Of a stretch of DNA of 15,599 nucleotides, positions 12,001-15,000 are shown one piece after another. The position numbers are program-made. Position 1 is the stretch's first letter. The number at the start of each line of letters is the position of its first letter. Source of the stretch: Planctomycetota bacterium. Lineage in GTDB: Bacteria > Planctomycetota > UBA8108 > UBA1146. The stretch spans positions 1-15,599 of the forward strand of contig JAYZBV010000055.1 in NCBI GenBank assembly GCA_036338595.1. The letters run 5' to 3'.

Positions 12001-15000
12001 CGGAGCCCTCCACAACGACAGAATGCAGCGATGCGTCATCTTCTCCAACATCAGAGACCTCCCAGCATTCCCCGATGGGAGGCAACGCATCCAGGTGGGG
12101 GCGGAGTTGTGCGAGCCGTCGGTCGCCTCCCCACGGCTTCCTCAACCCGATCGGCCTCAGATGGAGCAACTCCTGGCGCTGCATCAACGATCTGTTTCCG
12201 GTTCCAGGATCTGAGCCTCCTCGAGCATCTCGCTCGCTTCCGCAACGGACCTCTCGGTGGCTCGATCGCCTCTCAGCATCATCGCCAGTTCCTGAATCCT
12301 CTGGTCTCCAGAAACCTCCTCGATGCATGTTCGGGTCTGCTCGCCATGCATCTCCTTGATCACGCGATGATGTCGAGTGCCATGACATGCGACTTGCGGC
12401 AGATGAGTGACACAGAGCACCTGGTGATCCCGGCCGATCTGTTTCAACTTTTCGCCGATGGCATCTCCCAGTCTGCCACCCACGCCGGAGTCGATCTCGT
12501 CGAAAACAAGGGTTCCCGTATTCGAGGAACCCGCAAGCACTCGTTGCAGGGCGAGCATCAGACGTGACAGTTCTCCACCACTGGCAACATTTCCAATCGA
12601 TCGCATTTCTTCACCCGGATTGGCACAAAACAGCATCTCGAAATGATCCGCTCCTCGCTCGTCCATCCCATTCCAGCCGATTCCAGAATCGAGTGGCTGA
12701 AGCGACCCCTCGAGCCTCGCTTTGGACAGCCCCAGATCGGCAAGGTCAACGCAGACCTGCTCGACCATCTTGGCCACCACACCGGACCTTGCCTCGTGTA
12801 AACTCTCCACGCCTTCGCGGAGGCGTGAAACACATCGCTGCAGGCCTTCGCGCAACTCTGGCAACTCCTCGTCCGCTCCACCGAGCAGATCCAGTTCCTT
12901 GCGGCACTCCTCTCGATACTCCATCAGATCGGTGCCGGATCGGTGATATCGGTGCTCGAGGGTGACCAGTTGATCGACCCGTTGCCGTTTTTGCTCGAGC
13001 ACTTCCGGATCGAGATCGAGGCTCGATTCCACTTCGGAGAGCCCTCTCAGGGCATCCCCGAGGAGGATCGAGGACTCGCGGCAGCTCTGAACCATCGACT
13101 CGATTCCCGGGTGAAGCGTGGTCATCGCCTGAAGATCTCTGCCCGTTTCGCCGATCTGGTCCAGGATACTGTTCTCCTGCTCCTCGAAGCGATGTCGTAC
13201 CGATTCGATGGAAGCGAGTAATCGATCGCGGTCCTCCAGCAAGACCAGTTCCTGCTCCAGATTTTCCCGTTCATCCCCGGACAACTCTGCTTCGTCCAGT
13301 TCCCTCAGGATGTGTTCCAGGAACAGACAGCGGTCACTTCTCTCCCTGACCCCGTCTTCGATGTGGAGGACTTTCCGTTCCAGCTCGCGTGCTTCCAGCC
13401 ATGCATGGGTGTGCTGCTGGCGCAGTTCCAGCAGTCCGCCAAAGCGATCGAGCAGGTCCAGCTGCGCACCGGGCTGCACCAATGTGAGGGCGTGCCCCTG
13501 CCCGATCACATCGATCAATATCGGCGCGATGCGCCTGAGCAGTGTCGCTGTGGTTTCCCTGCCATCGATACGGCATCTGCTTCGACCTTCTCGTCTGACC
13601 TCACGCTCGATGACCAGTTCGCCATCCTCGATGTCAGTTCCGATCAGTTCGGAGATCCGCATGGCGACCGGCTCGTCGAGTTGAAAGATGCCAGCGACCT
13701 TGGCGCGATCTGCCCAGCGACCCACGAGATCCGAGCGTGTTCTCTCACCACGCAAGATCGCCATCGAGGCCAGAAGCATCGACTTTCCGACACCTGTCTC
13801 GCCCGTGAGGACCTGAAGACCCGGTCCCATCTCCAGTCCGGCATGTTCGATGAGCCCGAGGTTCTCGATCGAGAGATGGACCAGCACTGAACGCTCTCCT
13901 TCTCAGTGAGCCTGGGAACCGGGAGCGACCTTGCCGTCGGGACCGATGAGCCGCACGACTCCCTCGTCCTCGACTGCCAGCAGCATCCCTTGCGATGTCT
14001 CCCCGCGGATCGTTGCGGGCTGGAGATTCCATACCACCATGATGGTCCGACCAAGCAGTTCGTCTCGGGTGTAGTGAGCACGCACACCTGCAACGATCTG
14101 GCGCTTCTCATCTCCGCCGTCGATGGTCAGCAGCCAGAGTCGGTCCGCTTTCGGATGCGGCACCACCTCGAGCACCGTGGCGGTTCGCAGCTGCACCCTG
14201 GCAAAGTCATCGATGCTGATCAGATCGGTCTCCGATGTGGTTTCAGATCCGGTCTCGGAAGTCATGAGCATACCCCTTCTGGCTGGTCCGTTGATCGAGA
14301 TGACCGTTCTAAGGGGCTACCACTGCAGGTGCAATCCCGGGATGAAAAGGAGCCTGCGAACATCTCGGTGCGCAGGCTCCAGAATTCAGGATGAAAGTGT
14401 CACCGGTCAGCTCTAGAGACCCTCCTCCAGAAGGTTGTCGATGATCTGCTGGATTCGAGCCTCGTCGGCAGGATCAAAGCCCTGGTTGGCAATCCGATCC
14501 AGTTCGCTGCCTGCCTCGACCTGCTGATCTCCCAGTTCACGGATCTTGTCGAGCCACCGCGCAGACTCCGGGCCCGGATCAAAACTGTCACCGTCGCCCA
14601 TTCCAGCGACGGTACCGCCGCCGTCCTTGGCACCGTCAAGGCCTCCTGCTCCCTCAGTCTTGGGAGTTGGCTCTGGCCGTGCCGGTCCATCAGGACCGCC
14701 AACTGAACCGATTCCATCCACTCCTTCTGTCACCATGGGAAAACCCCTCTTCCCTCCGAGGCTGCTAAAACTGGTTCCAAGCAGGGTCCCTCGAACTCCC
14801 TACCCTCCGCGAGACCCATAAATCGGTCTCTGTAAAATAGATCGGGTGCAGTTCGGCAAGACTTGAACACATTCCGAAAAAAATCTGAAGCCCTGTCCAG
14901 ATTCACTGCCGGAGATCGTACACACCTGCCAAAACCTCGCAACCCCTTACTGCACATGGAGTTCGGAAGGCGTTACCAGAGCGAGACTTGGGCCGAAAAA

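Follow-up and report, generated by a model that had tools for sequence, protein, structure and literature searches.

The window (the whole stretch of DNA that was analysed, 15,599 nt) is contig C55 of the genome bin G000, from a marine planctomycete without a flagellum. The bin comprises 2.9 Mb and is 88% complete and 7% contaminated. A small gene on the reverse strand, which we assign to flgM, is found here together with its upstream signals and a block of genes that accompanies it in relatives:

5580..9851 (-), large Ser/Thr kinase-like gene, labelled from orthologues and motifs
11162..12388 (-), phosphomannose-isomerase-like gene, immediately after flgM in certain distant families
12184..13887 (-), RecN-like gene, synteny anchor
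13903..14271 (-), tRNA_bind gene (PF01588, E 1e-26), synteny anchor
14413..14736 (-), diverged flgM orthologue with an ATG start; 107 aa, strongly acidic, N-terminal half disordered
14744..14749 (-), Shine-Dalgarno-like GAGGGG, common to most canonical flgM loci of the class
14840..14845 (-), sigma-28-type -10 element CCGATC (motif match)
14862..14866 (-), sigma-28-type -35 element TCAAG, 16-nt spacer
14877..14883 (-), T-tract upstream of the -35 element at most loci, putatively UP-element-like
15047..15159 (-), conserved structured RNA, its loop invariant, ahead of an intrinsic terminator; synteny marker

The structured RNA, whose loop (GCGGGUCCC) is nearly invariant and whose terminator is conserved, lies 5' of flgM at most clade loci and in several flagellated kin. 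Two-sided changes were seen at 9/23 predicted pairs among 16 sequences; Rfam and ARAGORN gave no match for the region. Upstream of it, 15180-15599 (-) holds the Lys- and Asn-rich end of a gene, and a Pro/Glu/Ala repeat ORF occupies the contig start (4-504, +). Near-copies of two window segments (14915-15248, 95% identical; 15327-15599, 90%) were found at a contig end, on C111 of the same bin (1-335 and 684-956), and probably reflect a second strain in the bin.

We compared the window with a set of 41 genomes, in which "the clade" denotes genera g1, g5 and g7 (20 genomes including G000). Family and genus codes come from our own searches, and the genus labels differ from those of the initial annotation. 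The kin genomes are not independent of one another and for the most part incomplete; "not found" accordingly refers to the genomes searched and no others; G026 (79% complete) was counted as an incomplete flagellated genome.

The initial annotation had proposed that the 107-aa product is a diverged FlgM lacking a Pfam FlgM match of its own, restricted to certain genera, encoded in the same gene order as in flagellated kin and the single match of its family profile in the genome. All of these points were borne out. The window protein matched no Pfam family at E<=10, and PF04316 failed to match 8 of its orthologues or anything in the 20 clade genomes. With the window protein as query, an orthologue was detected in 16/19 other clade genomes (not in G002, G014 or G023; a weak second match in G006, carrying a stop, was left out of the count) and in 0/21 other relatives. 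Canonical FlgM showed the opposite distribution (0/20 clade genomes, 19/21 others). The tRNA_bind gene was next to flgM at 17/17 clade loci, with RecN after it at 16/17, and 5/5 canonical loci of the same family (f1) had the same two neighbours. Class-wide, 13/19 canonical loci had tRNA_bind and/or RecN within 1.5 kb; in distant families it is the later genes of the block that follow flgM, and a block with the large kinase-like gene is also found downstream of flgM in G032, G036, G039 and G044.

Profile comparison with hhalign joined the clade family to canonical FlgM with a probability of 96.1 (E 3.6e-9). The canonical profile detected g5 members at E 2e-4 to 3e-2 and the window protein only at E 0.12-0.2; when G000 was searched with it, the window protein was merely second-ranked (E 0.2). 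The orthology link of the window protein therefore runs through g5 and synteny. The clade profile had a single match in G000, the window ORF (E 4e-41; next 0.026). In a PDB search its top non-collagen match was a FlgM, at an E value (0.17) not significant alone. A HMMER search of 1.84 billion representatives gave 35 matches, of which 12 short ones were family members and 23 were long proteins mostly aligned to the low-complexity N-terminus; with no canonical FlgM among the 12, this search provides no link to it. AlphaFold2 monomer models were of low confidence (pLDDT 58 and 63). An N-terminal motif, the ribosome site and the promoter are common to clade and canonical flgM. Synteny, the profile probability of 96, the mutual exclusivity with canonical FlgM and the sigma-28-type promoter make it almost certain that the 107-aa ORF is real and orthologous to FlgM. 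The window protein is thus FlgM by descent, though it has neither the Pfam match nor the middle motif. Across 12 non-independent pairs, clade flgM gave dN/dS values of 0.03-0.98, below 0.6 in 11/12 and near 1 in one pair; the neighbouring gene gave 0-0.13, and canonical flgM pairs (0.10-0.21) were mostly below clade flgM. These ratios point to selection that is mostly purifying but relaxed.

The promoter pattern, T(C/A)AAG-N16-(C/T)CGA, is a motif match lying 130 nt 5' of the window gene. Its presence, as previously claimed, was upheld: the relaxed pattern occurred at 17/17 clade and 18/19 canonical flgM loci, and the strict pattern at 13/17 and 13/19, against 0/17 and 2/19 on the reverse strand. 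The spacer given earlier as N15 counts as N16. Contigs from RNA runs spanned flgM in 4/4 runs (3 studies) and none spanned 14830-15179, a weak hint as the runs were preselected by this stretch and may contain DNA.

A flagellar export gate is encoded elsewhere in G000. The region C72:16700-30270 carries FliF, FliH, FliI, FliJ, FliO, FliP, FliQ, FliR, FlhB, FlhA, FlhF, FlhG and FliA. FlhA and FliA were each found in 20/20 clade genomes, and the FlhA membrane motif and FliI Walker A were intact in the 12 clade genomes read. Queries with proteins of flagellated G009, whose flagellar gene labels are our own reading of sequences and gene order, retrieved no FliG, FliN, stator, rod, hook, junction, cap or flagellin from G000, nor FlgK or FlgL. 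Profile searches found flagellin in 0/20 clade genomes (11/21 outside), rod/hook proteins in 0/20 and the FliG C-domain in 0/20; FliK was found in 0/5 genomes tested, G000 and G044 among them. FlgM is the sole known late substrate found in G000. FliA itself (C72:29428-30270) has as its best solved relative, ahead of enteric FliA, the Streptomyces sigma factor of 6PFV/6PFJ, which we take to be WhiG. A FliF-FliG_N fusion is no more than weakly hinted at by G001 (L095:15786-17987), where FliF is extended and its tail matched FliG_N at E 0.0014, a second alignment giving no support; the tail is possibly a fusion remnant.

The gene flgN is also kept. It lies at C34:25768-26289 of G000, is present in 18/19 clade relatives and, though the G000 protein has no Pfam FlgN match, is linked to the canonical FlgN loci of flagellated relatives by matches of E 1e-7 to 1e-16. 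Its neighbour in G000 is the gene found beside the flgF-fliD operon of G009; that operon has thus shrunk to flgN alone. The flgN dN/dS was 0.06-0.24 (8 pairs). FlgN acting as an activator of FlhA, shown in Salmonella only (PMC7955116), would give it a role without FlgK and FlgL. We therefore agree with the earlier proposals that FlgM is retained with FliA, FlgN and the gate, that the clade lacks flagellin and that this gene is a FlgN orthologue. The stretch next to flgN (C34:26289-26614) holds a tRNA-like sequence; there is also a weaker site of the sigma-28 type, 69 nt 5' of flgN, which scored about 15 bits in 5 g7 genomes and <10 elsewhere.

We then read FlhB, whose C-terminal domain carries the cleavage motif. 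In G000 it spans positions 1-243 of the 335-position profile, and a profile search found no separately encoded C-domain in this genome (best E 0.72). FlhB stopped behind the linker helix and lacked both the cleavage motif and the C-domain in G000, G001, G003, G004, G012, G014, G018, G022 and G023, i.e. in 9/11 clade genomes read, and likewise in 10/10 genomes of f6 and f7, two other flagellum-free families. A degenerate C-domain without the cleavage Asn was kept in G011, G020 and G024; G031 and G033 keep Asn-Pro, and FlhB was intact in flagellated G009, G032 and G037. The C-domain profile missed the degenerate domain of G020, hence blanks in that search are no proof of truncation in the 9 unread clade genomes; G017 was labelled truncated solely from such a blank. 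On the FlhA tree, in which long branches meet, truncation needs 3-4 changes.

These alleles resemble ones obtained in Salmonella. Chevance et al. 2026 (PMC13344023) describe that, once the FlhB C-domain and Fluke are both removed, the gate is locked in FlgM export even though rod, hook and FliK are missing, that this late lock blocks early export and requires overexpression, and that one selected allele is a stop at 258; an FlhB domain lacking the cleavage Asn blocks switching. When residues are counted backwards, without gaps, starting at the cleavage Asn, FlhB of G012, G022 and G044 stops no more than about two residues away from the Salmonella position. The likeness to the flhB delta-CCD delta-flk gate of that study (PMC13344023) comprises an FlhB ending at the linker, the lack of rod, hook and FliK, and FlgM as late substrate. 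The Salmonella gate is, as described there, a laboratory state with overexpression, whereas the present one is natural, has several origins and occurs in a clade without FliG/FliN. The natural alleles fit a late-locked gate. The FlhB domain is, however, also the dock for early substrates; with rod and hook gone, its loss is to be expected anyway and need not imply late export, and simple decay of a dock no longer used would have the same outcome. We regard the loss of the switch domain as an added argument for FlgM being a substrate of the gate, its export being something we infer. The initial annotation had called the system a secretion checkpoint. This term is not supported: the sensors of hook completion were not found (rod/hook 0/20, FliK 0/5 tested, no FlhB switch domain in G000), and the gate is not a hook-completion checkpoint.

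To relate the window protein to solved FlgM/sigma-28 complexes, we divided its C-terminal half into three segments:

14536..14571 (-), first conserved helix, residues 56-67, matching the FlgM helix before the kink (AlphaFold2, low confidence; joint alignment)
14473..14535 (-), eroded middle segment, residues 68-88, in which R-x-x-K-V and I-x-x-G-x-Y are lost and a short helix (78-85) is predicted
14422..14472 (-), conserved last helix, residues 89-105, carrying the hydrophobic patch that in solved complexes occupies the sigma-4 groove (PMC12784957)

The family shares with the FlgM of such systems (PF04316; P. aeruginosa 9WSF, Aquifex 1RP3) its small size, a disordered N-terminus, a helical C-terminus, its own sigma-28 promoter and the last-helix patch with its FliA partners. 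It differs by the missing Pfam match, by loss of the middle motif and of the sigma-4 patch L200/L204/L210, and by the lack of a hook-basal body. The match of the C-terminal helices reported earlier was reproduced for the last helix (pattern in 15/17 clade and 18/19 canonical FlgM) but not for the sigma-4-binding middle segment, where I-x-x-G-x-(Y/F) was present in 1/17 clade versus 19/19 canonical proteins. Two hydrophobic positions remain in this segment. Net charge was -12 to -19 in clade FlgM and -11 to +1 in canonical FlgM.

Erosion was also found on the partner. In the P. aeruginosa complex, sigma-4 residues L200, L204 and L210 are touched by FlgM V77, I80 and I84, and L187, I191 and A203 by the last helix; the FliA substitution L204R raises the Kd from 2.2 to 422 nM, i.e. 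about 190-fold weaker binding (PMC12784957). Salmonella fliA alleles resistant to FlgM were looked for in the literature and not found, and play no part in the argument. We mapped the contact residues by alignment onto 37 of the 39 FliA found (G007 and G015 were left out). The L204 position was Leu in 19/19 proteins outside the clade, including 7 from flagellum-free genomes, and Gly, Cys or Arg in 18/18 clade proteins (Gly in G000, Arg in g7). The L200 position was Leu or Ile in 18/19 outside and Leu in 1/18 inside, and the L210 position was mostly lost in the clade. Equivalents of L187, I191, Y206 and R40 were kept in 18/18. Conserved columns lost in the clade numbered 13/20 in sigma-4.1 versus 3/22 in the DNA-binding part, and the DNA-binding helix was invariant. 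Judged from these alignments, half of the FlgM/FliA interface is eroded on both partners, which points to weakened binding in the clade. With the middle FlgM motif and the matching FliA patch both lost, tight anti-sigma activity is doubtful.

Candidate targets of FliA were sought with a matrix built from the flgM promoters. In 2232 upstream windows, 6 sense sites reached at least 19 bits, whereas the antisense strand gave 1 and the five wrong spacings 0-1. From 29 listed candidates 7 were taken to orthologue comparison, and five conserved targets emerged: a secretin in a pilO-containing operon, a TPR protein (presumably pilotin-like), a PilZ protein, PrkA-DUF444-SpoVR, and a gene before a GGDEF gene that by our own reading is receiver-like. 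In G003, G012 and G017, from three clade genera, 14/15 orthologous upstream regions reached at least 15 bits (antisense <=7.7). For the same targets this held for 3/5 regions in flagellated G009 and 0/4 in G036. Asparaginase was rejected as a target (0/5 regions at 15 bits or more); an MlaD candidate had 1/2. Weaker evidence comes from G044 and G036, where sites precede pilO, a pilin-like gene and the receiver-like gene just named. The conserved promoters lie before non-flagellar genes and thus argue that sigma-28 has a job without a flagellum. Both genomes also showed an excess of pattern matches (39 versus 7 in G044, 27 versus 4 in G036) that we do not trust, given that 18/30 and 15/27 annotated sites fall within ORFs and four are identical repeats. 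The repeats are four identical copies of a 426-aa gene in G044 (C1:912139, 2361513, 2376113 and 3476045), every one of them preceded at 117 nt by a perfect sigma-28-type site; from its repetition the gene is transposase-like.

The same combination was found in other lineages. Nine further genomes (G011, G031, G033, G035 and five of f6/f7) lacked flagellin and rod/hook proteins in our searches and had FlhA in 9/9, canonical FlgM in 7/9 and FliA in 7/9. A scan of the class at 85% completeness or more gave FlgM in 6/7 and flagellin in 0/7 genomes of f6, and FlgM in 3/3 and flagellin in 0/3 of f7. G044, a single 9.2-Mb contig, encodes the gate, FliG, FliN, FlhF/G, canonical FliA and FlgM and a truncated FlhB; no flagellin, rod/hook or FliK was found on it, and since it is one contig the objection of incompleteness is largely removed. 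FlgN was found in 0/3 genomes of f6. In G036 (C4, L069:14031-15323) FliI lacks the Walker A lysine, and gate, FlgM and FliA look canonical. With flagellated members in f1 and f4, taxonomy and tree imply at least three separate losses of the flagellum.

The explanation that we favour, tentatively and at a little under an even chance, is a retained circuit in which a late-locked gate exports FlgM and thereby sets a FliA regulon, with clade FlgM as a weak damper. FliA would transcribe flgM together with the secretin, TPR, PilZ, diguanylate cyclase operon and PrkA-DUF444-SpoVR genes. The minimal gate (FliF, FliHIJ, FliOPQR, FlhA and switch-less FlhB, with FlhF/FlhG and FlgN) would be fixed in late mode and remove FlgM into the periplasm, such that sigma-28 output would report assembly or energisation of the gate and not hook completion. 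In the clade FlgM may grip FliA mainly via its last helix, giving weak feedback; f4, f6 and f7 have a canonical interface, for which a tight brake would be expected. This suggests that the flagellum's assembly signal was reused to control pilus and lifestyle genes. Against it stand the G/C/R residues at the L204 position, the more acidic FlgM without its middle motif, the raised dN/dS, the degenerate FlhB domain of G011, G020 and G024, the dependence of the Salmonella late lock on Fluke loss and overexpression, the FliI of G036 and the failure to find FlgN in f6. The absence of the FliG C-domain from the clade also counts against it; FlgM export in B. subtilis requires FliG.

A serious though unlikely alternative is that clade FlgM no longer inhibits FliA at all, leaving sigma-28 unbraked and the protein a relaxed relic or one with a new role as gate substrate or plug. 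The contact most important in the Pseudomonas binding data is lost on both partners, the FliA patch varies between genera with no single new state and the losses concentrate in sigma-4.1, all of which, with the raised dN/dS, would be expected of such a relic. The ORF is nevertheless intact at 17/17 loci, with promoter, last helix and its FliA partners kept, and the canonical pairs of f4, f6, f7 and G011 would be left unexplained.

We consider it rather improbable that FlgM controls FliA and is then degraded or retained at FlhA, as described for L. oakridgensis and H. pylori, the gate having another use: other substrates, a CORE platform of the nanotube type or, together with FlhF/FlhG, a polar landmark. 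A review reports a functional FliA/FlgM pair in non-flagellated Legionella oakridgensis, with flgM sigma-28-dependent and FlgM apparently degraded; that organism differs from ours in having no basal body or export gate (PMC5655016). Export-gate genes without flagellum or injectisome parts are described in other phyla, as CORE in Myxococcus, Chloracidobacterium and Succinatimonas (PMC6456723) and as FlhA/FliF/FliI in Chlamydia (PMC2830194). The accessible parts of these two papers mention no FlgM, FlgN, FlhF/G circuit or FlhB truncation, and the use given is nanotubes or unassigned. The missing C-ring of the clade and the degenerate ATPase of G036 would agree with another use of the gate. It is harder to reconcile with gate, FlhF/G, FliA and FlgM staying together through at least three flagellum losses (f1, f4, f6/f7), with the export-serving FliHIJ and FlgN being kept in the clade and with no other gate substrate having been found among known types. 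A rebuilt interface, with FlgM and FliA co-evolved to a new contact as tight as in kin, would accommodate changes on both partners in one clade, the two hydrophobic positions and the short predicted helix, and is very unlikely given that the substitutions are genus-specific, include Gly, Arg and prolines, and form no fixed new motif.

Both orphan gates and FliA/FlgM pairs in bacteria without a flagellum are already known. In the literature searched, mostly open papers without supplements, no description was found of FliA/FlgM combined with gate, FlgN, FlhF/G and a repeatedly truncated FlhB; Table S2 of the CORE survey could list these taxa. Orphan gates have long been noted without a substrate; in the present genomes a candidate substrate accompanies the gate, as do its sigma factor, a regulon that can be read and a naturally truncated FlhB. 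Beyond the circuit retained in the clade, it is possible, if on the doubtful side, that several lineages of the class independently reduced the flagellum to a signalling machine: a polar type III gate, permanently in late mode, whose sole job would be to export FlgM and so drive a sigma-28 pilus/c-di-GMP programme. If true, this gate would be the natural counterpart of the late-locked one just built in Salmonella. The truncations match the 2026 model in which removal of the domain is the specificity switch (PMC13344023). That model could be tested on an evolutionary scale with these genomes, which also supply a minimal set of parts for late export. Erosion of half the FlgM/FliA interface on both sides is, for its part, a clean natural case of an anti-sigma factor detuned or retired. 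The flagellum-free families with canonical FlgM and FliA are a cleaner and stronger case than the window, and f6 and f7, G044 in particular, are the best test cases. Near the gate cluster of G044 (C1:6568377-6570378) we also observed a small GTPase gene between two roadblock-like genes, MglA/MglB-like by our own reading.
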